Below, piece by piece: positions 23,008-61,446 of a stretch of 64,000 bases of DNA (its first letter is position 1; every line of letters starts with the position of its first letter). Made by a program: the position numbers and the translations under genes. Source of the DNA: Alphaproteobacteria bacterium (lineage in GTDB: Bacteria; Pseudomonadota; Alphaproteobacteria; UBA828). The notes under the pieces were generated by a model that did not search any database, was not told the origin of the DNA, and was given only the letters and a program-made list of their open reading frames with translations. The stretch lies in NCBI GenBank assembly GCA_965214705.1, contig CBDCCI010000001.1, positions 608,001-672,000 of the forward strand. Reading direction: 5' to 3'.

Positions 23008-26000
23008 CTAGACTCGTGCCGCTTCATCGTCCACCTCCTCCGACCAGCTACTGTCGTCTTGCTCATCCACCTCGTACGGATCAATGTCTGCCGCCACCTC
23101 TTCGTGTACAGCATTCCCGCTGTTAACGGGCCTTGTGCCGTACGCTTGGGTGTAGGTCTGGCATGGCGATCGTAAGTCATTGATTTAGCGCGATTGGCGG
23201 GTGGCCGTAGGCAGCCAGAATCGGGTTTTCGTGACAATCGGCCGGTGCAGGGCCGGATTTTGTCACAACGGCGGCATCCAGCAGTGGTGGGTGGGAACGC
23301 TCCGCACCGCGAGATGCGGTAGGATGCCGCGCCGACAACCCAACATCAGACCCAACATCAGGAGCGTTCCCATGCCAGTGTCGCAGTCTCTCATCGCCTC
23401 GTCCATCGACCTTTTGGGCCTGCCTGCCGAAGTCGCCGAAGCGGTCGCCCAGGTGGTGGAGTTCTGTCGCGAACAGGCTGGGTCTGACCCGTCTGCCGAG
23501 ACGTTCGAAACGGTTGAGACGGGGCTGCGGGACGCCATGAACGGCTTGGGTTGCAAGCTCCTTGGGGCCTTCGCCGAGAGCCGCGACGACGGTGCGAGCC
23601 GGATCGAGCGCGACGGACAGAGCTGGGTCCGGGTGGCGGCGACGCCGAAGACGATCATGACGACGCTCGGTCCCGTGACCTATCGGCGTGCGCGCTATCG
23701 CAGCGGCGCGAGCAGCACGTCGCTGGTGCCGGTGGACGAGAGCCTGGGCCTCATCGACGACTACCTGACGCGGCCGGCGGCGCAGCTCGGGCTGATGATG
23801 ATGGGCCACTGTACGCCGCGTGAAGCGGAGGAGTTCTTCGCGAAAATGGGCGGAATGACGCCGTCGGTGAGCACGCTGCAGCGCCTGGCCCTGAGCATGC
23901 ATGAGCACTGGGAGAGCGTCGCCCCGGAGACGCTGGCCAGCATCCGTGAAACCCAGGGCATACCGCCCGATGCGGTCACCGCGTCCGTCTCCCTTGACGG
24001 CGTCATGGTGGCGCTGCGGGCCGGCGAGGACGGCCGTGCCGAGGCGTGCTGGCGCGAGGCCTCTTGCGGCACGGTCTCCTTCCACGACGCCGAGGGCCAA
24101 CGGCTGAAGACCCTCTATCTCGGCCGTATGCCCGAGAGCGGCAAGGCCGCGCTGAAAGCGCAACTTGCAAGCGAGGTCGCCCATATCCGCCGTGTGAGCC
24201 CGAAGATCAGGATCGGCGCCGTCGCCGACGGGGCCGCCGACAACTGGACCTTCCTCGAAAGCCTCTCGCCCGAGACCGAGGTCATCGACTTCTGGCACGC
24301 TTGCGAGCATCTCCGCGTGGCCTCTGACCATGCGGTGGCGCGCCACTGGTTCGAGAAGCACCGCGAAATCCTGCGCCACGACCCCCGCGGCGTCGACAAG
24401 GTGATCCGGGCACTGCGCTACCTCCTGGACAGGGCAAAGGGGGACCCGGCCGAGATCGAGCGCGAGCTGGCCTTCTTCCGAAAGCACCGCCATCGGATGC
24501 GCTACCACGCCCTGAAGGAAGAGGGCATCGCCATCGGCTCGGGTGTGGTCGAGGCGGCCTGCAAGACCCTCGTCGCGCAGCGCTTGAAACGCTCGGGCAT
24601 GCGCTGGCGGATCGACGGCGGGCAGGCGGTTCTGACCTTCCGCGCCCTGATCAAATCCGGCCTCTTCGACCGGGCATGGGATGCGCTCATGGACGCCCGA
24701 TCCGGACCAGCTAACGACAACATCAGCCCAACCGAAGTCCTGGCACTCGCTGCTTGACCAAAATGAACCAGCCCATATCCTTTAGCGCCATCACGACTGG
24801 CATATCGCCATACGAGAATCACACCCGTACGCTTGCCGATATGTTCGTACCCAGACAATCATTTCCTCGTCCATGCGCTTCAGCTCGTCGCGCCAACGAC
24901 TTACAAGCTCCGGTTCCGCACCCCGAACGTCCGCAATTGGCCTATCATCGTCTCCACGGGTAGCCAACAAGGCATCAAATGCCTCGCTGAGGTTTTCTAT
25001 CGCGCCGTCAAGATCATTCTGTGCACTAACGTACCGATCTAGTGGCGTGTTACCAGGGTCTTGGGCTTTCCGTGCCTTTCCAGGAGGCGGAAACGTGTTC
25101 CGGAGATAAATGTCGCTGATAGTCTGATCACCAGACCCATCAGACAGAGACTTAACATTTCCATTCTCATCCACTGCACGAATTGGCTGCTCGTTGGCAT
25201 AGTCCTGAACTGCCTGGCCGAACTGATAGATCCCCTGCGGATTGCGTCGCATGGCATCCAGCACTTCCCCGGGAGTACGCCGATCCGGCTGCTCGTTACC
25301 CGCGGATCCCCTATCGGCATTCAACCTGCCAGAAACAACCAGCGGATAGGACGCCCGGACCGCGAGTTCCACGGTCGATGGTCCTGGGTCTTCGGTTGCA
25401 TGGGTGCCAATCCATGCTTGCAACTCGGTCAGAGCGGCCTTTTGGAGTTCTGCGTTCGACCGCCCGGTAGGTTCCCAGTCATGAACACGAACAAACTTGC
25501 CGAACGAATGACGGAGATATCGCCGAACCTGATCCACCTTGCTCGGCTCATCAGCAACCGCACGGAGTATCAGCACAGTAGCAAGGTCATGCATTAGTTT
25601 GGAAGTGATACGTTTGCGGGTGGATTGGCTGGTCACCGCCACGCGAATGGCGTAGTCCACCCGCTCGTCATGGTTAGTGAAGAGATGGACAATTCGTGCC
25701 GCCCGCAACACGGGATCGTCCGGAAGGTGTGCAGCCTTTGCCTCGGCCTGAGTACACGATCCAGCAAGATATGCATACTCAGTCGAAGAGATAAGATCAC
25801 GCCGATACAACTCGGCAAGCACCTCGTCTGCAAGCGATTCGTATTCAGGCCCGTCACCCCAAGGCTTCGGAGGATCAACGTGGCGCAATGCTACGAGCGA
25901 CTTCACTGCCGTCGGAAATTGGGCCGAGGATTGTGGATGAGGCAAGAACCCAACAATAATCAGCGCCGGTATGCGCTCACAACGAAGAGCGATGCTTTCA

Positions 26001-26749
26001 CTCTCATCCGGTCCACGCTCGTGAGTCTTATTCAGCTTTCGGATGTGAGCACGCAGTTTCGACTCATTGTCGTCGTAAGGAACATCACTCGATCGGATTT
26101 GCAGCAGGTCGTGAACACACGTAGTCCGCGAAGAGCCCTCCGCTGTAGTCAATGCCGTCACCGCCGCAGATCCGTCCTCGTGCTGATATGTCGTAGCAAC
26201 CACCCAGACGGCCTCCATTACCCCCTGGGACGCGATCGACCTGCGCCAGTCATTCTCAGCGAGTACGTATCCGGCTGCATGTTGCGCAGCCCATGTCAGA
26301 TGGTGCCGGCTCTCGATATCCACCACGAGCTCGCCCTTGTTCGGCTCCTCGGAGTCAAACGGACGAGCTTCCGGGACTGGCCTAAACTTGGAATCTTCAC
26401 CACCGGTCCCGGGTTCAATCGCGAACGGGTGACGGCGTGAAGGAAGCGTTCTCGGGTTGCGGGGGTCGGGCATGATGCGGCGCGCCCAGACACTGGTCCG
26501 AACCCCCAGTAACGTACCGCCGGGAACCGGAATCTTCTCCGCTTCTGGATCCGCGGGGTCACCTATTGATTTCCGTACGTCAGTCGGGTCAACGACAGCG
26601 TTGGCTATCGCCGAAGCGGAAACATCGGACAAGCCGAAGGCGTCAACCAGCCGTGCCGCCAAGCTATGGCGTGACCTCGCGTTTGCGTATTCTGGTAGGC
26701 TCTCTACTGGACGCGGGATGACGTGCGGTTCATTCGTGTACTTATTCAT
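23008..26749 (-). CDS. ~690-aa protein with ParB/Srx-like motifs; acidic C-terminal tail cut off by an IS
   Basis: GGAGG RBS; IMPDPRNPR, SIASQGVMEAV, AEGSSR; IS removal restores QAY|GTRPVNSG...EEVDDEAARV*. Confidence 0.6.
23148..24826 (+). mobile_element. ISKra4/ISLre2-like (mutator-type) IS
   Basis: GGGTGT...ACACCC ends; 8-bp TSD GTACGCTT (23140-23147, 24827-24834). Confidence 0.88.
23372..24757 (+). CDS. UPF0236/ISKra4-type transposase
   Basis: SLDGVM, VADGAADNW, IDFWHACEHL, IGSGVVEAACK...RLKRSGMRW. Confidence 0.88.
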   Translation: MPVSQSLIASSIDLLGLPAEVAEAVAQVVEFCREQAGSDPSAETFETVETGLRDAMNGLGCKLLGAFAESRDDGASRIERDGQSWVRVAATPKTIMTTLGPVTYRRARYRSGASSTSLVPVDESLGLIDDYLTRPAAQLGLMMMGHCTPREAEEFFAKMGGMTPSVSTLQRLALSMHEHWESVAPETLASIRETQGIPPDAVTASVSLDGVMVALRAGEDGRAEACWREASCGTVSFHDAEGQRLKTLYLGRMPESGKAALKAQLASEVAHIRRVSPKIRIGAVADGAADNWTFLESLSPETEVIDFWHACEHLRVASDHAVARHWFEKHREILRHDPRGVDKVIRALRYLLDRAKGDPAEIERELAFFRKHRHRMRYHALKEEGIAIGSGVVEAACKTLVAQRLKRSGMRWRIDGGQAVLTFRALIKSGLFDRAWDALMDARSGPANDNISPTEVLALAA

Positions 26750-27131
26750 GACTCCTCCAGATTTCGCGTCCCACACAGTCTCGTTCGTAGGACGATGAAA
26801 CAACGGTGCGAAGCAGGGGACCGCCTACGGCAGCCCCCTGCTCGCTAGTCGAACGAGGAACTACGACCTCATCTTGCGCCGCAGTTGGGCATGAAAGTTC
26901 TTGAACGAAGCCGCTACGCGGAGTTAGCGGCGTAGAGTTCATTCATTTCCGAGGCGTCGCGGGTGCCGTTTGTTCTGTGCGTTCGCTTCCCGGTTGCGTC
27001 AGTGGCGCTCCGCCCGTCGGGTGGCGGATCCCCAGCAGCCTCCCGATCACCAGTGGTTAGCATCGACCCCTGCGACGGACCGTCGCCGGATCGGTCCGGC
27101 GGCGCGCCGTCGCGATCCAGGGAGATCGATA

Positions 27132-28010
27132 ATGACCGGGACCGCGTGCGACACGAACACCGTCACCCCTCTTCGCCAGCGCATGGAGGAGCAGCTCCGC
27201 ATCGCCAATCTGGCCGCGAGCACGTCCAAGGCCTACATCTGCGAGATCAAGAACCTGGCCAGGTACTACGACGCCTCGCCGGACGAGCTCGACGCCGAGC
27301 AGGTGCGCCAGTGGTACCTGGGGCGGATCGACAAGGGGCTCAGTCCGGGCACGACCAACGTCTCCTTCGCCGCGCTGAACTTCCTCTACATCGACACACT
27401 CGGCTGGCCTGACCATGTCGCCGGCCTGCGCTCCCGCAAGAAGCCCGGCAAGCTGCCGCGCTACATGTCGGAGCAGGAGGTCGAGCACCTCATCCTTGCG
27501 ACACCCGACCTCCGCCACCGTGCTGCCATTGTCACCGGCTATGGCGGCGGGCTCCGCATCTCCGAGACCTTGGCCATCAAGGTCGGCGACATCCTGTCGG
27601 AGAAGAAGCTGCTGCACATCCCCTCCGGCAAAGGCGGCACCGAGAGAATGGCACCGTTGCCGGACATCGTCATCCACTACTTGCGCGTCTACTACAGGAA
27701 CATCTGGCCGCGTCCGACGAGCTGGCTCTTCTACGGCGTCTCGCTCGACAGGCCCATCGCAACGGAGACCTTGCAGGCCGCCTTCAGGAGGGCGCGCGAC
27801 ATTGCCGAGCTCGACCGCAGCTACACCTTCCATTGCCTGCGCCATTCGGCGGCGACCCATCTCCTCGAGCGCGGCGGCGATATCGAGGTGATCCGGGACA
27901 TGCTCGGCCATCGAAGCGCGAACACGACCCGTCACTACGCCCGCGTCACCGGCAAGATGTTCGAGGGCCTCGACCACCCGATCTCAGGCTTCGCAGCGTT
28001 GCGCAACTGA
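27132..28010 (+). CDS. Tyrosine recombinase (SAM-like N-domain)
   Basis: YGGGLRISE, SGKGG, FHCLRHSAATHLLE, MLGH...TTRHY. Confidence 0.92.
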   Translation: MTGTACDTNTVTPLRQRMEEQLRIANLAASTSKAYICEIKNLARYYDASPDELDAEQVRQWYLGRIDKGLSPGTTNVSFAALNFLYIDTLGWPDHVAGLRSRKKPGKLPRYMSEQEVEHLILATPDLRHRAAIVTGYGGGLRISETLAIKVGDILSEKKLLHIPSGKGGTERMAPLPDIVIHYLRVYYRNIWPRPTSWLFYGVSLDRPIATETLQAAFRRARDIAELDRSYTFHCLRHSAATHLLERGGDIEVIRDMLGHRSANTTRHYARVTGKMFEGLDHPISGFAALRN

Positions 28011-28016
28011 CGGCGC

Positions 28017-29258
28017 GTGGAGGCCGAACGCGCGGGCGTGGCGGAGATCTTCCGCCGCGCCGGCGCCGCTTTCCGTGAGCGCCACAAAGGGCGCATCGAC
28101 GCCGCCCGGCTCAAGGTCATGGGCGCCATCGAGGCGTGCCGCACCGCCGTGCTCGGCGGCCACATGTACGCCTGCGAGGGCTGCGGGCGCGAGCATCCGC
28201 TCTTCAACTCCTGCCGCAACCGCCACTGCCCCACCTGCCAGGGTCTCGCCGCCAACCTCTGGAGCGAGGAGCGCGCCGGGGACATCCTGCCGGTGCCCTA
28301 CTTCCATGTGGTCTTCACCCTGCCCAAGGAGGTTGCCGCCATTGCCTTCTGCAACCGCAGGGTGGTGTTCGACATCCTCTTCCGGGCCGTCGCCGAGACC
28401 CTGCGCACCATCGCCGCCGATCCCCGCCACGGCGGCATGCGCATCGGCGGCACCGCGGTCCTCCATACCTGGGATCAGAAGCTCCGCTTCCACCCGCACC
28501 TGCACGTGGTCGTGCCCAACGCGGGCTTCGACGTAGACAGTGGCGAGTGGAAGACGGGGAGCACCACCTTCCTCGCCCCCGTCAAGGTCCTCGGCAGCCT
28601 GTTCCGCCGCCTCTTCCTCAAGGAGCTCGCCCGCGCCCACGGCCGGGGGGACCTGGAGTTCCACGGCACCCTCGCCCACCTCGCCAATCCCGGCGAGTTC
28701 CACGCCACGCTTGCCGCCGCCCGGGCCAGGGACTGGGTGGTCTACGCCAAGCGGCCCTTCCGCGGGCCTGAGCAGGTCTTCCGGTACCTCTCGCACTACA
28801 CGCACAGGATCGCCATCTCCGACAGCCGCATCGTCTCCTTCGACGGCGAGACGGTCTCCTTCCGCCACCGAAAGCCCAAGGCGCCGGGGCAGAGAAAGCC
28901 GCGCTACGGCATCGCCACCGTGAGCGCCGACGAGTTCATCCGCCGCTTCCTGAGGCACGTCCTGCCGGACGGCATGCACCGCATTCGCTACTTCGGCATC
29001 CTCGCCAACGGCTGCCGCGCCAGCACGCTGGAGAGAGCACGCCAGGCTCTCGGCGCCCTCGGCTGCGCCGCCCCCGAGGGAAGCGTGGACGGCGCTCAGG
29101 CCGAGCCCGACGAAGAGCCCGAGATCGGCACCGCGCCCGTGGCCTGCCCCCACTGCGGCGGCGTCATGCGCCTCGTCCGCGAAATCCGCCGCCGCCATGA
29201 GCCCCGCTCGACGCGCGGCCCGCCGGCGCTGCCGCCGACCCACAGGGGGAAACCGTGA
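28017..29258 (+). CDS. IS91-family Y2 HUH transposase
   Basis: CRT...CEGC...SCRNRHCPTC zinc domain, HPHLH (HUH), YLSHY (Y2), RIRYFGIL. Confidence 0.93.
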   Translation: MEAERAGVAEIFRRAGAAFRERHKGRIDAARLKVMGAIEACRTAVLGGHMYACEGCGREHPLFNSCRNRHCPTCQGLAANLWSEERAGDILPVPYFHVVFTLPKEVAAIAFCNRRVVFDILFRAVAETLRTIAADPRHGGMRIGGTAVLHTWDQKLRFHPHLHVVVPNAGFDVDSGEWKTGSTTFLAPVKVLGSLFRRLFLKELARAHGRGDLEFHGTLAHLANPGEFHATLAAARARDWVVYAKRPFRGPEQVFRYLSHYTHRIAISDSRIVSFDGETVSFRHRKPKAPGQRKPRYGIATVSADEFIRRFLRHVLPDGMHRIRYFGILANGCRASTLERARQALGALGCAAPEGSVDGAQAEPDEEPEIGTAPVACPHCGGVMRLVREIRRRHEPRSTRGPPALPPTHRGKP

Positions 29259-30109
29259 GACGCCCGCTCGCTTCGGCCCCGCGCAACGGCGCCAAAGCGC
29301 CGACGCACGACCGAACCTGTCTCCGCTTGAGCCGGGCTGACAGCCCTCGGCTCACACCCCGCTCAGTCCTCGCAGCGTGCGCCCGCATGCCTGCCGAAAG
29401 ACCGGCGCGAGCGTCGATTTTATGCGCAACTCTGCTGCCGGTGGATGCCGCCTGACGCTGACATCAGCGCACTTTCCACATAGCTCAACTTCGCCTCTCG
29501 TGGCCCGCGGCTTCGTTCAAAAGGGTTGGGCAGGCTCTCGAGAGAGAGCCTGCCCAACCCTTAACCTTGATCGCGCGGGAGTCGGAAGGCGTGTCAGGCG
29601 CAAACACAACGCCTTCCATGTTTGGGTGTTCGAACCGCCAATGACCGCCACGGGTCTTGGTCGCGATGAACCCCTGCCGCTCAAGCTGGCGGCGGACTTC
29701 TTTCATTTCGGAACTGGCTGACATTCCTGTCTCCTTGGCTGGCGGCCAAATCGCCAATCGACCTCGGCCGCAACGTGAGTTGACCAACCGAGGTGCCAAG
29801 GAGACGGGGTCTCCGTGCGCATCCTCCTTCCGCTTGCTAGGTAAGACCCAGCGTCACCGAAGGCGGCAACAGCTGCGATGTGACCCTCCCAAGACGTACA
29901 CGAGCGCTGGGTTCATCCAGCAAATCGCGCGTAGCCGCCCCTCATCGCCAATGATGGGGTGGAAGACCGCGAACAGCTGCGTCGCGGTTAGGAGGAGTAT
30001 CGAGGAATGCGGCGGCAACGTCAACCCTGATTCGTGGGAGGCTGGTGGCCGCGCATCTCAAGTGTCGTCGATGTCGAGCGTTACCCCGCTTGGCGGGGCC
30101 AGATCGCAT

Positions 30110-35959: not shown

Positions 35960-38629
35960 TTGAACGAAGCCGCTACGCGGAGTTAGCGGCGTAGAGTTCA
36001 TTCATTTCCGAGGCGTCGCGGGTGCCGTTTGTTCTGTGCGTTCGCTTCCCGGTTGCGTCAGTGGCGCTCCGCCCGTCGGGTGGCGGATCCCCAGCAGCCT
36101 CCCGATCACCAGTGGTTAGTATCGACCCCTGCGACGGACCGTCGCCGGATCGGTCCGGCGGCGCGCCGTCGCGATCCAGGGAGATCGATAATGACCGGGA
36201 CCGCGTGCGACACGAACACCGTCACCCCTCTTCGCCAGCGCATGGAGGAGCAGCTCCGCATCGCCAATCTGGCCGCGAGCACGTCCAAGGCCTACATCTG
36301 CGAGATCAAGAACCTGGCCAGGTACTACGACGCCTCGCCGGACGAGCTCGACGCCGAGCAGGTGCGCCAGTGGTACCTGGGGCGGATCGACAAGGGGCTC
36401 AGTCCGGGCACGACCAACGTCTCCTTCGCCGCGCTGAACTTCCTCTACATCGACACACTCGGCTGGCCTGACCATGTCGCCGGCCTGCGCTCCCGCAAGA
36501 AGCCCGGCAAGCTGCCGCGCTACATGTCGGAGCAGGAGGTCGAGCACCTCATCCTTGCGACACCCGACCTCCGCCACCGTGCTGCCATTGTCACCGGCTA
36601 TGGCGGCGGGCTCCGCATCTCCGAGACCTTGGCCATCAAGGTCGGCGACATCCTGTCGGAGAAGAAGCTGCTGCACATCCCCTCCGGCAAAGGCGGCACC
36701 GAGAGAATGGCACCGTTGCCGGACATCGTCATCCACTACTTGCGCGTCTACTACAGGAACATCTGGCCGCGTCCGACGAACTGGCTCTTCTACGGCGTCT
36801 CGCTCGACAGGCCCATCGCAACGGAGACCTTGCAGGCCGCCTTCAGGAGGGCGCGCGACATTGCCGAGCTCGACCGCAGCTACACCTTCCATTGCCTGCG
36901 CCATTCGGCGGCGACCCATCTCCTCGAGCGCGGCGGCGATATCGAGGTGATCCGGGACATGCTCGGCCATCGAAGCGCGAACACGACCCGTCACTACGCC
37001 CGCGTCACCGGCAAGATGTTCGAGGGCCTCGACCACCCGATCTCAGGCTTCGCAGCGTTGCGCAACTGACGGCGCGTGGAGGCCGAACGCGCGGGCGTGG
37101 CGGAGATCTTCCGCCGCGCCGGCGCCGCTTTCCGTGAGCGCCACAAAGGGCGCATCGACGCCGCCCGGCTCAAGGTCATGGGCGCCATCGAGGCGTGCCG
37201 CACCGCCGTGCTCGGCGGCCACATGTACGCCTGCGAGGGCTGCGGGCGCGAGCATCCGCTCTTCAACTCCTGCCGCAACCGCCACTGCCCCACCTGCCAG
37301 GGTCTCGCCGCCAACCTCTGGAGCGAGGAGCGCGCCGGGGACATCCTGCCGGTGCCCTACTTCCATGTGGTCTTCACCCTGCCCAAGGAGGTTGCCGCCA
37401 TTGCCTTCTGCAACCGCAGGGTGGTGTTCGACATCCTCTTCCGGGCCGTCGCCGAGACCCTGCGCACCATCGCCGCCGATCCCCGCCACGGCGGCATGCG
37501 CATCGGCGGCACCGCGGTCCTCCATACCTGGGATCAGAAGCTCCGCTTCCACCCGCACCTGCACGTGGTCGTGCCCAACGCGGGCTTCGACGTAGACAGT
37601 GGCGAGTGGAAGACGGGGAGCACCACCTTCCTCGCCCCCGTCAAGGTCCTCGGCAGCCTGTTCCGCCGCCTCTTCCTCGAGGAGCTCGCCCGCGCCCACG
37701 GCCGGGGGGACCTGGAGTTCCACGGCACCCTCGCCCACCTCGCCAATCCCGGCGAGTTCCACGCCACGCTTGCCGCCGCCCGGGCCAGGGACTGGGTGGT
37801 CTACGCCAAGCGGCCCTTCCGCGGGCCTGAGCAGGTCTTCCGGTACCTCTCGCACTACACGCACAGGATCGCCATCTCCGACAGCCGCATCGTCTCCTTC
37901 GACGGCGAGACGGTCTCCTTCCGCCACCGAAAGCCCAAGGCGCCGGGGCAGAGAAAGCCGCGCTACGGCATCGCCACCGTGAGCGCCGACGAGTTCATCC
38001 GCCGCTTCCTGAGGCACGTCCTGCCGGACGGCATGCACCGCATTCGCTACTTCGGCATCCTCGCCAACGGCTGCCGCGCCAGCACGCTGGAGAGAGCACG
38101 CCAGGCTCTCGGCGCCCTCGGCTGCGCCGCCCCCGAGGGAAGCGTGGACGGCGCTCGGGCCGAGCCCGACGAAGAGCCCGAGATCGGCACCGCGCCCGTG
38201 GCCTGCCCCCACTGCGGCGGCGTCATGCGCCTCGTCCGCGAAATCCGCCGCCGCCATGAGCCCCGCTCGACGCGCGGCCCGCCGGCGCTGCCGCCGACCC
38301 ACAGGGGGAAACCGTGAGACGCCCGCTCGCTTCGGCCCCGCGCAACGGCGCCAAAGCGCCGACGCACGACCGAACCTGTCTCCGCTTGAGCCGGGCTGAC
38401 AGCCCTCGGCTCACACCCCGCTCAGTCCTCGCAGCGTGCGCCCGCATGCCTGCCGAAAGACCGGCGCGAGCGTCGATTTTATGCGCAACTCTGCTGCCGG
38501 TGGATGCCGCCTGACGCTGACATCAGCGCACTTTCCACATAGCTCAACTTCGCCTCTCGTGGCCCGCGGCTTCGTTCAAGGTTAAGGGTTGGGCAGGCTC
38601 TCTCTCGAGAGCCTGCCCAACCCTTAACC
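35960..38629 (+). mobile_element. Integrase-IS91 element copy 2 (2670 bp, variant right end)
   Basis: Recombinase 36191-37069, Y2 transposase 37076-38317; a few SNPs versus copy 1. Confidence 0.92.
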
Positions 38630-38643
38630 TTGAACGAAGCCGC
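38566..38643. repeat. Perfect palindrome (37-bp arms, 4-nt loop) at the tandem junction
   Basis: GCGGCTTCGTTCAAGGTTAAGGGTTGGGCAGGCTCTC-TCTC-reverse complement. Confidence 0.95.
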
Positions 38644-41295
38644 TACGCGGAGTTAGCGGCGTAGAGTTCATTCATTTCCGAGGCGTCGCGGGTGCCGTTT
38701 GTTCTGTGCGTTCGCTTCCCGGTTGCGTCAGTGGCGCTCCGCCCGTCGGGTGGCGGATCCCCAGCAGCCTCCCGATCACCAGTGGTTAGCATCGACCCCT
38801 GCGACGGACCGTCGCCGGATCGGTCCGGCGGCGCGCCGTCGCGATCCAGGGAGATCGATAATGACCGGGACCGCGTGCGACACGAACACCGTCACCCCTC
38901 TTCGCCAGCGCATGGAGGAGCAGCTCCGCATCGCCAATCTGGCCGCGAGCACGTCCAAGGCCTACATCTGCGAGATCAAGAACCTGGCCAGGTACTACGA
39001 CGCCTCGCCGGACGAGCTCGACGCCGAGCAGGTGCGCCAGTGGTACCTGGGGCGGATCGACAAGGGGCTCAGTCCGGGCACGACCAACGTCTCCTTCGCC
39101 GCGCTGAACTTCCTCTACATCGACACACTCGGCTGGCCTGACCATGTCGCCGGCCTGCGCTCCCGCAAGAAGCCCGGCAAGCTGCCGCGCTACATGTCGG
39201 AGCAGGAGGTCGAGCACCTCATCCTTGCGACACCCGACCTCCGCCACCGTGCTGCCATTGTCACCGGCTATGGCGGCGGGCTCCGCATCTCCGAGACCTT
39301 GGCCATCAAGGTCGGCGACATCCTGTCGGAGAAGAAGCTGCTGCACATCCCCTCCGGCAAAGGCGGCACCGAGAGAATGGCACCGTTGCCGGACATCGTC
39401 ATCCACTACTTGCGCGTCTACTACAGGAACATCTGGCCGCGTCCGACGAACTGGCTCTTCTACGGCGTCTCGCTCGACAGGCCCATCGCAACGGAGACCT
39501 TGCAGGCCGCCTTCAGGAGGGCGCGCGACATTGCCGAGCTCGACCGCAGCTACACCTTCCATTGCCTGCGCCATTCGGCGGCGACCCATCTCCTCGAGCG
39601 CGGCGGCGATATCGAGGTGATCCGGGACATGCTCGGCCATCGAAGCGCGAACACGACCCGTCACTACGCCCGCGTCACCGGCAAGATGTTCGAGGGCCTC
39701 GACCACCCGATCTCAGGCTTCGCAGCGTTGCGCAACTGACGGCGCGTGGAGGCCGAACGCGCGGGCGTGGCGGAGATCTTCCGCCGCGCCGGCGCCGCTT
39801 TCCGTGAGCGCCACAAAGGGCGCATCGACGCCGCCCGGCTCAAGGTCATGGGCGCCATCGAGGCGTGCCGCACCGCCGTGCTCGGCGGCCACATGTACGC
39901 CTGCGAGGGCTGCGGGCGCGAGCATCCGCTCTTCAACTCCTGCCGCAACCGCCACTGCCCCACCTGCCAGGGTCTCGCCGCCAACCTCTGGAGCGAGGAG
40001 CGCGCCGGGGACATCCTGCCGGTGCCCTACTTCCATGTGGTCTTCACCCTGCCCAAGGAGGTTGCCGCCATTGCCTTCTGCAACCGCAGGGTGGTGTTCG
40101 ACATCCTCTTCCGGGCCGTCGCCGAGACCCTGCGCACCATCGCCGCCGATCCCCGCCACGGCGGCATGCGCATCGGCGGCACCGCGGTCCTCCATACCTG
40201 GGATCAGAAGCTCCGCTTCCACCCGCACCTGCACGTGGTCGTGCCCAACGCGGGCTTCGACGTAGACAGTGGCGAGTGGAAGACGGGGAGCACCACCTTC
40301 CTCGCCCCCGTCAAGGTCCTCGGCAGCCTGTTCCGCCGCCTCTTCCTCAAGGAGCTCGCCCGCGCCCACGGCCGGGGGGACCTGGAGTTCCACGGCACCC
40401 TCGCCCACCTCGCCAATCCCGGCGAGTTCCACGCCACGCTTGCCGCCGCCCGGGCCAGGGACTGGGTGGTCTACGCCAAGCGGCCCTTCCGCGGGCCTGA
40501 GCAGGTCTTCCGGTACCTCTCGCACTACACGCACAGGATCGCCATCTCCGACAGCCGCATCGTCTCCTTCGACGGCGAGACGGTCTCCTTCCGCCACCGA
40601 AAGCCCAAGGCGCCGGGGCAGAGAAAGCCGCGCTACGGCATCGCCACCGTGAGCGCCGACGAGTTCATCCGCCGCTTCCTGAGGCACGTCCTGCCGGACG
40701 GCATGCACCGCATTCGCTACTTCGGCATCCTCGCCAACGGCTGCCGCGCCAGCACGCTGGAGAGAGCACGCCAGGCTCTCGGCGCCCTCGGCTGCGCCGC
40801 CCCCGAGGGAAGCGTGGACGGCGCTCAGGCCGAGCCCGACGAAGAGCCCGAGATCGGCACCGCGCCCGTGGCCTGCCCCCACTGCGGCGGCGTCATGCGC
40901 CTCGTCCGCGAAATCCGCCGCCGCCATGAGCCCCGCTCGACGCGCGGCCCGCCGGCGCTGCCGCCGACCCACAGGGGGAAACCGTGAGACGCCCGCTCGC
41001 TTCGGCCCCGCGCAACGGCGCCAAAGCGCCGACGCACGACCGAACCTGTCTCCGCTTGAGCCGGGCTGACAGCCCTCGGCTCACACCCCGCTCAGTCCTC
41101 GCAGCGTGCGCCCGCATGCCTGCCGAAAGACCGGCGCGAGCGTCGATTTTATGCGCAACTCTGCTGCCGGTGGATGCCGCCTGACGCTGACATCAGCGCA
41201 CTTTCCACATAGCTCAACTTCGCCTCTCGTGGCCCGCGGCTTCGTTCAAAAGGGTTGGGCAGGCTCTCGAGAGAGAGCCTGCCCAACCCTTAACC
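38630..41295 (+). mobile_element. Integrase-IS91 element copy 3 (tandem with copy 2)
   Basis: Recombinase 38861-39739, Y2 transposase 39746-40987. Confidence 0.92.
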
Positions 41296-58780: not shown

Positions 58781-61446
58781 TTGAACGAAGCCGCTACGCG
58801 GAGTTAGCGGCGTAGAGTTCATTCATTTCCGAGGCGTCGCGGGTGCCGTTTGTTCTGTGCGTTCGCTTCCCGGTTGCGTCAGTGGCGCTCCGCCCGTCGG
58901 GTGGCGGATCCCCAGCAGCCTCCCGATCACCAGTGGTTAGCATCGACCCCTGCGACGGACCGTCGCCGGATCGGTCCGGCGGCGCGCCGTCGCGATCCAG
59001 GGAGATCGATAATGACCGGGACCGCGTGCGACACGAACACCGTCACCCCTCTTCGCCAGCGCATGGAGGAGCAGCTCCGCATCGCCAATCTGGCCGCGAG
59101 CACGTCCAAGGCCTACATCTGCGAGATCAAGAACCTGGCCAGGTACTACGACGCCTCGCCGGACGAGCTCGACGCCGAGCAGGTGCGCCAGTGGTACCTG
59201 GGGCGGATCGACAAGGGGCTCAGTCCGGGCACGACCAACGTCTCCTTCGCCGCGCTGAACTTCCTCTACATCGACACACTCGGCTGGCCTGACCATGTCG
59301 CCGGCCTGCGCTCCCGCAAGAAGCCCGGCAAGCTGCCGCGCTACATGTCGGAGCAGGAGGTCGAGCACCTCATCCTTGCGACACCCGACCTCCGCCACCG
59401 TGCTGCCATTGTCACCGGCTATGGCGGCGGGCTCCGCATCTCCGAGACCTTGGCCATCAAGGTCGGCGACATCCTGTCGGAGAAGAAGCTGCTGCACATC
59501 CCCTCCGGCAAAGGCGGCACCGAGAGAATGGCACCGTTGCCGGACATCGTCATCCACTACTTGCGCGTCTACTACAGGAACATCTGGCCGCGTCCGACGA
59601 GCTGGCTCTTCTACGGCGTCTCGCTCGACAGGCCCATCGCAACGGAGACCTTGCAGGCCGCCTTCAGGAGGGCGCGCGACATTGCCGAGCTCGACCGCAG
59701 CTACACCTTCCATTGCCTGCGCCATTCGGCGGCGACCCATCTCCTCGAGCGCGGCGGCGATATCGAGGTGATCCGGGACATGCTCGGCCATCGAAGCGCG
59801 AACACGACCCGTCACTACGCCCGCGTCACCGGCAAGATGTTCGAGGGCCTCGACCACCCGATCTCAGGCTTCGCAGCGTTGCGCAACTGACGGCGCGTGG
59901 AGGCCGAACGCGCGGGCGTGGCGGAGATCTTCCGCCGCGCCGGCGCCGCTTTCCGTGAGCGCCACAAAGGGCGCATCGACGCCGCCCGGCTCAAGGTCAT
60001 GGGCGCCATCGAGGCGTGCCGCACCGCCGTGCTCGGCGGCCACATGTACGCCTGCGAGGGCTGCGGGCGCGAGCATCCGCTCTTCAACTCCTGCCGCAAC
60101 CGCCACTGCCCCACCTGCCAGGGTCTCGCCGCCAACCTCTGGAGCGAGGAGCGCGCCGGGGACATCCTGCCGGTGCCCTACTTCCATGTGGTCTTCACCC
60201 TGCCCAAGGAGGTTGCCGCCATTGCCTTCTGCAACCGCAGGGTGGTGTTCGACATCCTCTTCCGGGCCGTCGCCGAGACCCTGCGCACCATCGCCGCCGA
60301 TCCCCGCCACGGCGGCATGCGCATCGGCGGCACCGCGGTCCTCCATACCTGGGATCAGAAGCTCCGCTTCCACCCGCACCTGCACGTGGTCGTGCCCAAC
60401 GCGGGCTTCGACGTAGACAGTGGCGAGTGGAAGACGGGGAGCACCACCTTCCTCGCCCCCGTCAAGGTCCTCGGCAGCCTGTTCCGCCGCCTCTTCCTCA
60501 AGGAGCTCGCCCGCGCCCACGGCCGGGGGGACCTGGAGTTCCACGGCACCCTCGCCCACCTCGCCAATCCCGGCGAGTTCCACGCCACGCTTGCCGCCGC
60601 CCGGGCCAGGGACTGGGTGGTCTACGCCAAGCGGCCCTTCCGCGGGCCTGAGCAGGTCTTCCGGTACCTCTCGCACTACACGCACAGGATCGCCATCTCC
60701 GACAGCCGCATCGTCTCCTTCGACGGCGAGACGGTCTCCTTCCGCCACCGAAAGCCCAAGGCGCCGGGGCAGAGAAAGCCGCGCTACGGCATCGCCACCG
60801 TGAGCGCCGACGAGTTCATCCGCCGCTTCCTGAGGCACGTCCTGCCGGACGGCATGCACCGCATTCGCTACTTTGGCATCCTCGCCAACGGCTGCCGCGC
60901 CAGCACGCTGGAGAGAGCACGCCAGGCTCTCGGCGCCCTCGGCTGCGCCGCCCCCGAGGGAAGCGTGGACGGCGCTCAGGCCGAGCCCGACGAAGAGCCC
61001 GAGATCGGCACCGCGCCCGTGGCCTGCCCCCACTGCGGCGGCGTCATGCGCCTCGTCCGCGAAATCCGCCGCCGCCATGAGCCCCGCTCGACGCGCGGCC
61101 CGCCGGCGCTGCCGCCGACCCACAGGGGGAAACCGTGAGACGCCCGCTCGCTTCGGCCCCGCGCAACGGCGCCAAAGCGCCGACGCACGACCGAACCTGT
61201 CTCCGCTTGAGCCGGGCTGACAGCCCTCGGCTCACACCCCGCTCAGTCCTCGCAGCGTGCGCCCGCATGCCTGCCGAAAGACCGGCGCGAGCGTCGATTT
61301 TATGCGCAACTCTGCTGCCGGTGGATGCCGCCTGACGCTGACATCAGCGCACTTTCCACATAGCTCAACTTCGCCTCTCGTGGCCCGCGGCTTCGTTCAA
61401 AAGGGTTGGGCAGGCTCTCGAGAGAGAGCCTGCCCAACCCTTAACC
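58781..61446 (+). mobile_element. Integrase-IS91 element copy 4, inserted in intron domain V
   Basis: Recombinase 59012-59890, Y2 transposase 59897-61138; no TSD. Confidence 0.92.

Follow-up and report, generated by a model that had tools for sequence, protein, structure and literature searches.

A tyrosine recombinase-bearing IS91-family element with a dyad target resembling a recombinase core site: a possible role for a folded single-stranded circle

The element described here is an autonomous, very active IS91-family insertion sequence with a tyrosine recombinase (YR) gene, and its target is a weak dyad, CGNNCAA-N6-TTGNNCG, with a spacer of exactly 6 bp, which is new in the present analysis. 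The dyad arms have the sequence of the element's own terminal repeat, and the insertion point is the border between spacer and arm. With arms of 7 bp, 6 bp between them and the crossover 3' of AA where arm and spacer meet, the target is built like the sites of Xer and IntI. Judged from sequence, the geometry of our dyad is typical of a YR core site with a single strand exchanged, and it supports integration by the YR without proving it. Whether the transposase makes a folded single-stranded circle that the YR then integrates by exchange of one strand is, in our judgement, evenly balanced.

The YR-bearing IS91 subgroup is already known. One study places the YRs of IS91 elements in an 'Integron-like' subgroup, with IntI as the closest homologues and the IntI insertion missing (10.1101/542381). 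In the literature searched, we found neither a published role for these YRs nor an analysis of the targets, in agreement with the preliminary description of this DNA, which knew of no settled role for the recombinase.

Results

Copies and insertion sites

The window, that is, the whole 64-kb stretch of DNA that was analysed, contains the element four times, and about 90 further copies lie elsewhere in the genome.

26901 to 29566, plus strand: copy 1, 2666 bp, disrupting a HicA-like gene; boundaries set by empty-site paralogues of other copies
35960 to 38629, plus strand: copy 2, 2670 bp, unit 1 of a head-to-tail tandem, with altered right end
38630 to 41295, plus strand: copy 3, unit 2 of the tandem
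58781 to 61446, plus strand: copy 4, in a hairpin loop of a multi-copy group II intron, close to its 3' end
38566 to 38643, no strand assigned: tandem joint, a perfect 78-nt palindrome with 37-bp arms (-51.8 kcal/mol, z = -17.5)

The preliminary description had four nearly identical copies of about 2666 bp. The number and the few differences were right, but only three copies are 2666 bp long, the inner tandem copy being 2670 bp. Relative to copy 1, copies 3 and 4 have a single changed position each out of 2666, and copy 2 has four substitutions in the body and a rearranged right end. The tandem joint is a perfect palindrome because the hairpin loop is inverted and four extra bases stand ahead of the hairpin. 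The loop is inverted in 5 of the 56 uninterrupted 2666-bp copies of the genome. Both genes are intact in all 56, and 54 of them deviate from the consensus at no more than six positions, which bears out the recent spread that had been proposed. The roughly 85 distinct insertion sites lie in ordinary genes, introns and other insertion sequences. A tandem of the element with itself occurs only once among about 90 copies, and there the joint is altered. An orientation bias of the insertions against GC skew (71 of 102) was rejected, since masking of the element copies themselves abolished it (46-52 of 102).

An uninterrupted paralogue spans the joint for 33 of the 85 rejoined flank pairs in the whole genome, and 14 of these 33 paralogues are 100% identical over 120 nt without a gap, so that insertion is exact and leaves no duplication. 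For copy 4 alone, the rejoined site has 20 uninterrupted paralogues (best, 100% over 120 nt). The boundaries are fixed by three sites at which the right flank begins with something other than TT. Thus, exact rejoining without duplication at the boundaries first given is confirmed. One-ended read-through products were not seen among about 90 copies, where no pair shares a left flank and has different right flanks. The wild-type end-to-end joint, as expected for a circle, was bridged by no contig in the assembled contigs of public runs.

The sequences interrupted by copy 1 are as follows.

29567 to 29574, plus strand: right target arm beside copy 1, TTGATCGC, within the interrupted gene
29567 to 29724, minus strand: N-terminal part of the HicA-like gene (Pfam HicA_toxin 28.2 bits, cut-off 27, profile positions 2-42 of 58)
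26861 to 26900, minus strand: C-terminal part of the HicA-like gene

The two parts rejoined in silico give a 65-aa frame, and the HicA_toxin match at 28.2 bits upholds the earlier assignment of this gene. Copy 4 had been placed in domain V of an intron. Domain V is a reading of the hairpin by eye; in a paralogue, a group-II D1-D4 match of Rfam lies some 2 kb upstream of this position, and there is no Rfam match to domain V. At the gathering threshold, Rfam gave no match anywhere in the window.

Genes of the element

27132 to 28010, plus strand: YR gene, 292 aa (Pfam Phage_integrase 114.9 bits, Phage_int_SAM_4 46.5 bits)
28017 to 29258, plus strand: IS91-family Y2/HUH transposase gene, 413 aa, starting 6 nt past the YR stop codon

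The transposase matches Pfam Y2_Tnp (183.9 bits, cut-off 20.9) and Zn_Tnp_IS91 (104 bits, cut-off 26.3) as well as the NCBIfam equivalog NF033538 (382.8 bits, cut-off 125). Its translation contains H-x-H and Y-x-x-x-Y, which we take to be the HUH and Y2 motifs. The catalytic set of the YR is complete, with R142, K167, H234, R237, H260 and Y269 invariant or nearly so across 23 relatives. The earlier identification, an element of the IS91 family in which a YR precedes a Y2/HUH transposase, is right. The YR scores under the curated cut-offs of XerA, XerC, XerD and IntI. The IntI profiles gave 130.2 bits in two stretches for TIGR02249 (cut-off 265) and 74.6 for NF011946 (cut-off 435), and by sequence comparison the YR is without the IntI-specific additional segment. 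Its best matches among solved structures are the XerC-like 4a8e and XerD (1a0p).

Distant loci with the YR-transposase gene pair come from several phyla and number 40 out of 80. Within the same order, the YR was detected at E <= 1e-30 in only 3 of 49 genomes, and of 365 matching records in the search for close relatives on plasmids, none covers at least 80% of the element. In this genome, every non-truncated IS91-type transposase gene has a YR gene upstream, so that the genome offers no YR-less negative control.

Ends of the element

26901 to 26914, plus strand: 14-bp terminal repeat at the left end, which is equivalent to terIS; bottom strand terminating in ...GTTCAA
26910 to 26931, plus strand: weak subterminal left-end hairpin with a 7-bp stem (bottom strand -11.9 kcal/mol, z = -2.25; top strand z = -0.69)
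29507 to 29520, plus strand: right copy of the 14-bp repeat, subterminal and inverted
29521 to 29562, plus strand: right-end hairpin with perfect 19-bp arms and a 4-nt loop (-26.3 kcal/mol, z = -9.4)
29563 to 29566, plus strand: 4-nt tail AACC, unpaired when the ends are joined; on the bottom strand GGTT, immediately past the joint

The 14-bp inverted repeat, the hairpin with 19-bp arms and the 4-nt tail all lie where they had first been placed, and none of 200 shuffles matched the right-end fold. The preliminary description had also stressed an unpaired AACC at the joint. Four nucleotides are indeed unpaired, but it is on the bottom strand that the joint coincides with the position where a recombinase canonically cleaves, and there they read GGTT. 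The first seven nucleotides of the left repeat, TTGAACG, are the consensus of the target right arm. A second arm-like motif, TTGGGCA, is at the base of the right hairpin stem, 5 nt past ...CAA. In relatives, the right-end hairpin is kept with partly compensating changes, and the tails are 5 nt long with a different sequence. Three subfamilies, namely the present element and two relatives of about 80% identity in the same genome (one of which recurs in two sister genomes), all have a bottom-strand joint composed of ...CAA, 9 nt of differing sequence and then a TTG..C box. Of the 27 distant loci that could be evaluated, 12 have at both ends a 12-nt core of the terminal repeat, which is conserved across phyla and ends in GTTC.

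The arm-like boxes at the end-to-end joint, together with the tandem in the window, could mean that the YR alone mobilises the element, cutting it out of tandems as a double-stranded circle and integrating it, while the HUH protein only replicates that circle. We regard this as improbable. Exchange of two strands would put the 6-bp spacer on both sides of the insert, whereas the 14 perfect empty-site matches show no duplicated base. Moreover, the boxes in the duplex joint read as 9 bp apart, against the usual 6-8 bp between recombinase boxes, and the presence of about 90 copies whose donors stayed in place agrees better with copy-out than with cut-out.

Target site

Among 76 unique sites, the right flank has T at +1 in 64, T at +2 in 73, G at +3 in 40, C at +6 in 55 and G at +7 in 44, and the left flank has A in 36 both at -8 and at -7, with G at -1 in only 3. 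When the reverse complement of the right-arm matrix was scored along the left flank, the scan peaked at a spacer of 6 (mean -1.56 against about -6.3 elsewhere, s.e.m. 0.5), where 39% of the sites were positive; the control in direct orientation was flat. The peak was -0.33 with 55% positive in the 40 sites that have single-copy flanks. The genomic background at spacer 6, drawn from a sample of 20,000 of the 50,430 positions in the genome whose right arm is as good, was -6.50 with 7.8% positive.

As the arms are inverted repeats, the dyad might be a hairpin of single-stranded target DNA, for example at replication forks, that is read by the HUH transposase; IS200/IS605 HUH transposases use hairpins and lagging-strand templates. 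This reading is very improbable, because pairing of the arms within sites never exceeded what column composition predicts: no Watson-Crick covariation was detected at any of 12 positions (5000 shuffles each, NN positions included), and arm positions 1 and 2 paired less than the shuffles. The disappearance of the orientation bias against GC skew after masking also speaks against it. On the other hand, TT is missing from the right flank at 12 sites, most of which have, by eye, AA near -8/-7 on the left, so that the arms compensate for each other. Lack of covariation together with arm compensation agrees with a pair of protomers that cooperate on double-stranded DNA, and not with a hairpin in the target.

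The preliminary description had inferred integration by the recombinase from the presence of GTTC at only one of three sites. This argument looked at the wrong flank, since the conserved target adjoins the hairpin (right) end, as it adjoins the end downstream of the transposase gene in IS91 (PMC13181058). It had also called for a target logo over many sites. The logo has no strict GTTC/CTTG consensus, but a transposase-type target rule does exist, because the flank beside the right end is strongly conserved. GTTC terminates one of 95 unique left flanks and TTG starts 42 of 85 unique right flanks; CTTG is formed only across the joint, because the TTG flank follows the last C of the element. The four IS91-family members that have been studied differ in their target words, which are CTTG, GTTC and GTCC (PMC13181058), and we therefore treat the exact word as specific to the member and not as defining the family. 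A second YR-bearing family in this genome, element O, has no TT beside its right end, a point against the mechanism proposed below.

Discussion

The mechanism to which we give an even chance may proceed as follows. By analogy with IS91, the transposase would nick the bottom strand at the hairpin (right, oriIS-like) end, rolling-circle replication would displace this strand up to the left end ...GTTCAA, and the transposase would close the displaced strand into a single-stranded circle while the donor copy remains. In the circle, the 14-nt terminal repeat is predicted to pair with its subterminal copy and to stack on the 19-bp hairpin, leaving GGTT unpaired directly past the joint. Such a folded joint would present arm-like 7-bp boxes, CGTTCAA/TTGAACG and TTGGGCA/TGCCCAA, on both sides of a partly unpaired spacer. 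In the step at issue, YR protomers would bind the folded joint and the double-stranded CGNNCAA-N6-TTGNNCG target. Only the bottom strands would be exchanged, immediately 3' of ...CAA, and replication would then resolve the junction. The outcome would be exact insertion at the border of spacer and right arm, without duplication and with the donor kept, as observed. More generally, we tentatively suggest, a little short of even confidence, that YR-bearing IS91 elements combine HUH copy-out with IntI-like paste-in, a relay that is not described for any transposon.

The YR is not needed for this in principle, because IS91, which has none, inserts a single-stranded circle by its transposase alone; the inserting form is the bottom-strand circle (PMC13181058). 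Transposition by the transposase only, in which the Y2 enzyme both makes and inserts the circle and cuts the target 3' of a motif like its own left-end cleavage site, is a serious rival, though in our judgement somewhat less likely. The YR would then be accessory, for example resolving tandem multimers or cointegrates at the end-to-end joint, or regulating. The target tetranucleotide of IS91 adjoins oriIS and resembles the terIS cleavage site (PMC13181058). Correspondingly, the strong half of our target (CGNNCAA on the bottom strand, the proximal arm) equals the last seven bottom-strand nucleotides of the element, CGTTCAA at the left terminus, which is the classical prediction of transposase-only insertion and speaks against pasting by the YR, as does the weakness of the distal arm (A in 36 of 76 sites). 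The repeat core kept in the 12 distant loci points to the transposase as its reader, since it is shared by several phyla and its last four letters are GTTC, the tetranucleotide at which IS91-family elements are canonically cleaved (PMC13181058). The transposase could read the distal arm too, if it recognises the TTG..C box after its own right-end cut. However, transposase-only insertion gives no simple reason for an inverted second arm at exactly 6 bp, nor for the compensation between arms. HUH enzymes work on single-stranded DNA, and recognition of a dyad in a double-stranded target is not known for them. A hint of resolution by the YR is that our element lies exactly at the left end of 3 of 10 copies of element O, yet forms one self-tandem among about 90 copies, but loss of tandems is equally explicable by homologous recombination between 2.7-kb direct repeats.

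This element bears on the role of the YR in a widespread IS91-family branch, which includes elements beside resistance genes and within integron arrays. With about 85 insertions of a single element that are independent and can be dated, the genome serves as a natural experiment, and it offers a testable answer, namely a target built like a recombinase core site with the crossover where a recombinase would cut. If the relay of transposase and YR is true, it would tie rolling-circle transposons mechanistically to integrons and Xer-dependent phages, and would account for the attC homing of relatives. YR-bearing IS91 elements would then be free-living kin of integron-type recombination, with a degenerate 7-6-7 target that occurs thousands of times per genome, and could reveal the origin or spread of folded-DNA recombination. 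If the relay is false, the dyad would be a new property of HUH transposase targeting. The element is compact, with 2.7 kb, two genes, defined ends and a defined target, and is well suited to bench work.

Comparison with known systems

The element resembles IS91 and its relatives IS801 and IS1294 in having a Y2/HUH transposase with an N-terminal zinc domain and no target duplication. It also shares with IS91 a hairpin end downstream of the transposase gene with the conserved target adjoining, a left end with GTTC on the bottom strand and a short target resembling the left-end cleavage site (PMC13181058). Its two ends are unlike in the IS91 manner, with a right hairpin at z = -9.4, a weak left hairpin and a bottom-strand target CGNNCAA against the left terminus CGTTCAA, although the oriIS and terIS roles are putative. 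On the other hand, IS91 has orf121 where the present element has the YR. Moreover, the right flank of our element is TTG (bottom CAA) instead of GTTC/CTTG, GTTC being 2 nt inside the left end, its terminal/subterminal 14-bp inverted repeat is perfect, and its target is a 7-6-7 dyad, not a tetranucleotide. Its absence of read-through among about 90 copies contrasts with 1-14% reported for IS91 and IS1294.

ISShvi3 and ISWz1 (ISfinder names) are IS91-family members with an upstream YR gene. The present element shares with such members the gene pair and the gene order, on the same strand and inside the element. ISShvi3 was reported beside an attC site (PMC9229058). Our element differs in hitting a degenerate dyad genome-wide, not attC sites.

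Helitrons, which are rolling-circle Y2 transposons of eukaryotes, have a Y2 HUH enzyme, a subterminal hairpin a few nucleotides before the 3' end and duplication-free insertion by T-rich dinucleotides. The enzyme, the hairpin near the 3' end and the precise insertion without duplication beside a T-rich dinucleotide are shared, as a circular intermediate would be, whereas the present element is bacterial, has no helicase domain (Pfam) and carries a recombinase gene. Circular intermediates of Helitrons are reported (PMC4778049).

Parallels to the proposed paste-in step are found in phages and integrons. In CTX-phi integration by XerCD at dif, a folded single-stranded site mimics a duplex core with an unpaired centre, one strand is exchanged and the integration is irreversible. 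Unlike CTX-phi and other Xer-dependent integrating elements (IMEX), which bring no recombinase and enter the dif site of the host, our element has its own recombinase, many degenerate targets and no use of dif; the only dif-like site found in the genome (contig C3, about 1885744) is unoccupied. From the integron system, in which IntI recombines the bottom strand of attC, folded, with a double-stranded attI, it differs in a YR without the IntI-specific insertion, in having no attI, cassette array or cassette-type cargo (judged from insertion-site content), and in C/T rather than G as the base 5' of the crossover. An HUH enzyme, instead of conjugation or replication, would supply the single strand. 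The reaction as proposed would nevertheless be like that of integrons, in that a folded single strand with unpaired bases would meet a double-stranded partner with short inverted boxes, one strand pair would be exchanged and replication would resolve the product. The crossover would lie directly 5' of a top-strand TT, and TTGAAC of the element fits the integron core TTRRRY.

Copies, boundaries and genes of the element

The element, an IS91-family insertion sequence of 2666 bp with a tyrosine recombinase gene and a Y2/HUH transposase gene, occurs in the window (G000 contig C2, 608001-672000) in the four copies that the preliminary description had counted, copy 2 being 2670 bp long.

26901-29566, element copy 1
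35960-38629, element copy 2, 2670 bp, with four substitutions and a rearranged right end
38630-41295, element copy 3, with a single difference from copy 1
58781-61446, element copy 4, with a single difference from copy 1

The whole 7.92-Mb genome holds 96 left-end and 94 right-end anchors, whose pairing gave 85 two-ended copies; 56 of them are exactly 2666 bp and the remainder are mostly interrupted by other insertion sequences. Both reading frames are intact in all 56 uninterrupted copies, and 54 of these lie no more than six positions from the majority sequence. The spread of the element is a very recent burst.

For each of the 85 paired copies, we joined the two flanks computationally and searched the genome for uninterrupted paralogues. 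Such a paralogue runs across the joint at 33 of the 85 rejoined sites, in 14 cases identical and gap-free over 120 nt. The right flanks mostly start with TT like the element itself, so that the boundary could in principle shift by two bases. Boundaries shifted in this way (GAAC...AACCTT) were ruled out, because the empty paralogues of three sites without TT fit only the unshifted ones. Thus, the ends and the exact rejoining that had been described from the sequence are correct. Copy 1 does interrupt a HicA-like gene, which gives a frame of 65 aa on rejoining. An open reading frame of 670 aa (window 24791-26803, minus strand) lies directly downstream of this gene. [quoted passage not shown] This site had been assigned to intron domain V; the group II intron holds, and the domain label was not confirmed by Rfam, which gave no domain V match at E ≤ 0.1 at this target.

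27132-28010, tyrosine recombinase gene (Pfam Phage_integrase and Phage_int_SAM_4)
28017-29258, IS91-family transposase gene, starting 6 nt after the recombinase gene (Zn_Tnp_IS91, Y2_Tnp and NF033538)
29507-29520, inverted copy of the 14-nt repeat that opens the element

The transposase scores 383 bits against NF033538 (cut-off 125). In an alignment of the recombinase with 22 relatives of 39-79% identity, little or no variation is seen at R142, K167, H234, R237, H260 and Y269. The recombinase does not reach the curated cut-offs for XerA, XerC, XerD or the integron integrase. The integron integrase model matches it in two stretches, as would be expected if the IntI-specific segment were absent, and its best relatives of solved structure are a XerC-like protein, XerD and IntI4. 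In a published classification of tyrosine recombinases, those of IS91 elements stand next to IntI (10.1101/542381).

At the right end, downstream of the transposase gene, a hairpin with perfect 19-bp arms (-26.3 kcal/mol, z = -9.4) directly follows the inverted repeat and is itself followed by a 4-nt tail; the left end forms only a weak hairpin. An initial TT is absent from 4 of 100 left ends (which read AT, CT, CT and TA; C2:371311, C3:286978, C3:1784954 and, on the minus strand, C3 1273101), all by single substitutions, against a typical divergence between copies of about 2 in 2666 positions. In one older copy, the left end and the right flank both open with AT. Possibly, on what is too small a number of cases, the transposase cut 2 nt from the integration crossover, or flank bases were carried over from the donor. 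The loop of the right-end hairpin is inverted in 5 of 56 copies. An SNP allele that is frequent in unflipped copies too occurs in four of these five and is missing from the fifth. Template switching that recurs in the perfect palindrome could produce this pattern. Loop inversion as a signature of the transposition mechanism was dropped, and no mechanistic conclusion is drawn from it.

Host genome, other insertions and distribution

The host genome is 7.9 Mb in size, compared with rounded values of 2.8-6.3 Mb in the other 20 genomes of the genus. Nested insertion sequences and group II introns crowd it, and its cumulative GC skew is irregular. Its sole uninterrupted CATAA-N6-TTATG site (about 27 nt, G000:C3:1885744) lies 2.5 kb from the cumulative GC skew maximum of contig C3 (1888243) and is a candidate dif of that replicon.

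Outside the window, a 1650-bp IS110-family element (locus L114, G000:C1:39433-41082; Pfam DEDD_Tnp_IS110 and Transposase_20) sits at element position 1306, inside the transposase gene. Nine copies, each 4316 bp long, carry it there, as do other copies of more complex structure. Since these host copies differ in SNP haplotype, it seems to home into position 1306 repeatedly, as a parasite of a parasite. Another insertion sequence, about 2.1 kb long and with a DDE transposase (Pfam DDE_Tnp_1; L115, G000:C2:699812-701930, and L116, 692238-694400, both outside the window), has terminal repeats beginning CGAACTTCC. It directly follows the last base of the element in eight copies and is elsewhere always preceded by TTAA-N-C (30 listed ends); the element's own end happens to be a target of this type.

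The pair of recombinase and transposase genes was present in 40 of the 80 loci retrieved with the recombinase alignment, from sources that by record title are Alpha- and Betaproteobacteria, Gemmatimonadales, Bryobacterales, Blastocatellia, Planctomycetota and Oceanirhabdus. The recombinase occurs in only 3 of 49 genomes of the same order, no plasmid record covers 80% of the element, and close relatives of the element are rare. Near-identical copies (at least half of the sampled words) are present in contigs of 18 public runs, and the 20 runs holding at least part of the element come from 12 studies under many different organism labels. The element, or the bacterium itself, may accompany other organisms in their sequencing projects.

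Target site

GTTC had been sought on the left flank and seen there once. That was the wrong flank, and GTTC ends only 1 of 95 unique left flanks genome-wide. According to the available text on IS91 (PMC13181058), the conserved target abuts oriIS, downstream of the transposase gene, and the inserted form is a bottom-strand circle. We therefore give the counts for both flanks of 76 unique sites, leaving out eight copies with another insertion sequence abutting the right end. On the right, T occurs at +1 in 64 and at +2 in 73 sites, G at +3 in 40, C at +6 in 55 and G at +7 in 44. This consensus, TTGNNCG, is identical to the element's own first seven bases. On the left, A occurs at -8 and at -7 in 36 sites each, and G at -1 in only three.

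For a possible dyad, a leave-one-out weight matrix was built from positions +1 to +8 and its reverse complement was scored along the left flank. The score peaks at a spacer of exactly 6 bp (mean -1.56, s.e.m. 0.55, 39% of sites positive), compared with about -6.3 at most offsets. The peak is sharper in the 40 sites whose flanks are both single-copy (-0.33, 55% positive). The same matrix in direct orientation gave no peak along the left flank. A composition control at spacer 6, a sample of 20,000 genomic positions, gave -6.50 with 7.8% positive; the control pool comprised 50,430 genomic positions with a right arm scoring at least as high as the median real site. From this peak and its controls, the target is CGNNCAA-N6-TTGNNCG, and insertion takes place at the border of spacer and right arm.

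Complementarity of the two arms within single sites exceeded the expectation from column composition at none of 12 positions, and fell below it at the two strongest. Twelve sites lack TT on the right, and most of them, in a listing read by eye, carry AA at about -8/-7 on the left. The arm pattern agrees with cooperation of two protein units on duplex DNA and disagrees with a hairpin in a single-stranded target. An apparent bias for one replication strand (71 of 102 ends opposed to the local GC skew) was rejected as an artefact, because it disappeared once the element's own C-rich copies were masked (46-52 of 102 at four window sizes, p = 0.37-1).

The tandem of copies 2 and 3 is explained by the target rule, since a resident copy presents, at its left end, a perfect right arm. 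The joint forms a perfect palindrome of 78 nt (-51.8 kcal/mol). The 4 extra nt and the flipped loop are both accounted for by a single template switch across the quasi-palindrome, in which replication would leave from the repeat and return in the far hairpin arm. This altered joint belongs to the only self-tandem among about 90 copies. Such rarity is suggestive of tandem resolution, and homologous recombination explains it equally. A solitary perfect palindrome of 50 nt (G000:C1:3505988-3506037) has the same form as window 38576-38629, namely 4 nt, the hairpin with flipped loop and the 4-nt tail, without the element body. It is flanked by unrelated DNA ending ...CAA on one side and by the left end of element O on the other.

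Element O is a second recombinase-plus-Y2 element of about 2.63 kb, found at G000:C3:317425-320060 and about nine other places, and it abuts copies of the element outside the window. The two are 34% identical in recombinase and 40% in transposase and share the left-end motif. Element O has two right-end hairpins, and the 8-nt loop of the outer one is found in both orientations among its copies. In 3 of its 10 copies the element is inserted exactly at the left end, by the same target rule as in the self-tandem. Dif-like targets at the flanks of element O were rejected, since the sequence is its own outer hairpin and the paralogue flanks start about 20 nt past the presumed end.

Mechanism of insertion

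The preliminary description had proposed that a folded single-stranded circle is integrated by the recombinase. Part of this idea is supported, by evidence other than the argument first put forward, and with the bottom strand as the substrate. If the bottom strand were closed into a circle, the joint would lie after ...GTTCAA, the 14-nt repeats would pair, four bases would stay unpaired beside the joint and the hairpin would stack on top. The base of the hairpin holds a second box of the form TTG..C. The distance from the bottom-strand ...CAA to this box is 9 nt in the element and in two relatives of about 80% identity in the genome, one of which recurs in two sister genomes, and the intervening bases differ. 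A top-strand joint would miss the recombinase-type cleavage position. From this geometry, we consider it an evenly balanced proposition that the transposase makes the circle and the recombinase integrates its folded joint.

Alternatively, the transposase may insert the element by itself, the recombinase being accessory, which we hold as a tentative second reading. The stronger target arm equals the last bases of the element's bottom strand, exactly as the classical transposase-only model predicts, and the distal arm is weak. Moreover, the available text on the IS91 transposase describes insertion without any recombinase (PMC13181058). The terminal-repeat core, which has GTTC as its last four bases, is conserved at both ends of 12 among 27 evaluable loci with recombinases of only about 33-38% identity. 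This conservation suggests that the transposase reads the core. No recombinase-less IS91 element that could serve as a control was found in the genome.

Four of the 20 public runs with at least part of the element, all held as contigs, were compared with the tandem joint. No contig in these four runs bridges the wild-type joint with 31 nt on both sides; since rare forms escape assembly into contigs, this absence has no bearing on circles. A contig of 58 nt (depth 2.9), with two other letters on the right side, reaches 28 nt to the left and 14 nt to the right of the joint, too little to count as bridging, and fits the natural junction of the element with element O.

Returning to integration of a folded circle joint by the recombinase, the use of a single border with zero duplication would result from a single strand exchange and replication, and would not result from a two-strand exchange. 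Inverted 7-base arms, a 6-bp spacer and a crossover at the border of arm and spacer, immediately 3' of AA on the strand exchanged, are the architecture of Xer and integron sites. The element is a new, highly active member of the known IS91 subgroup with a tyrosine recombinase.
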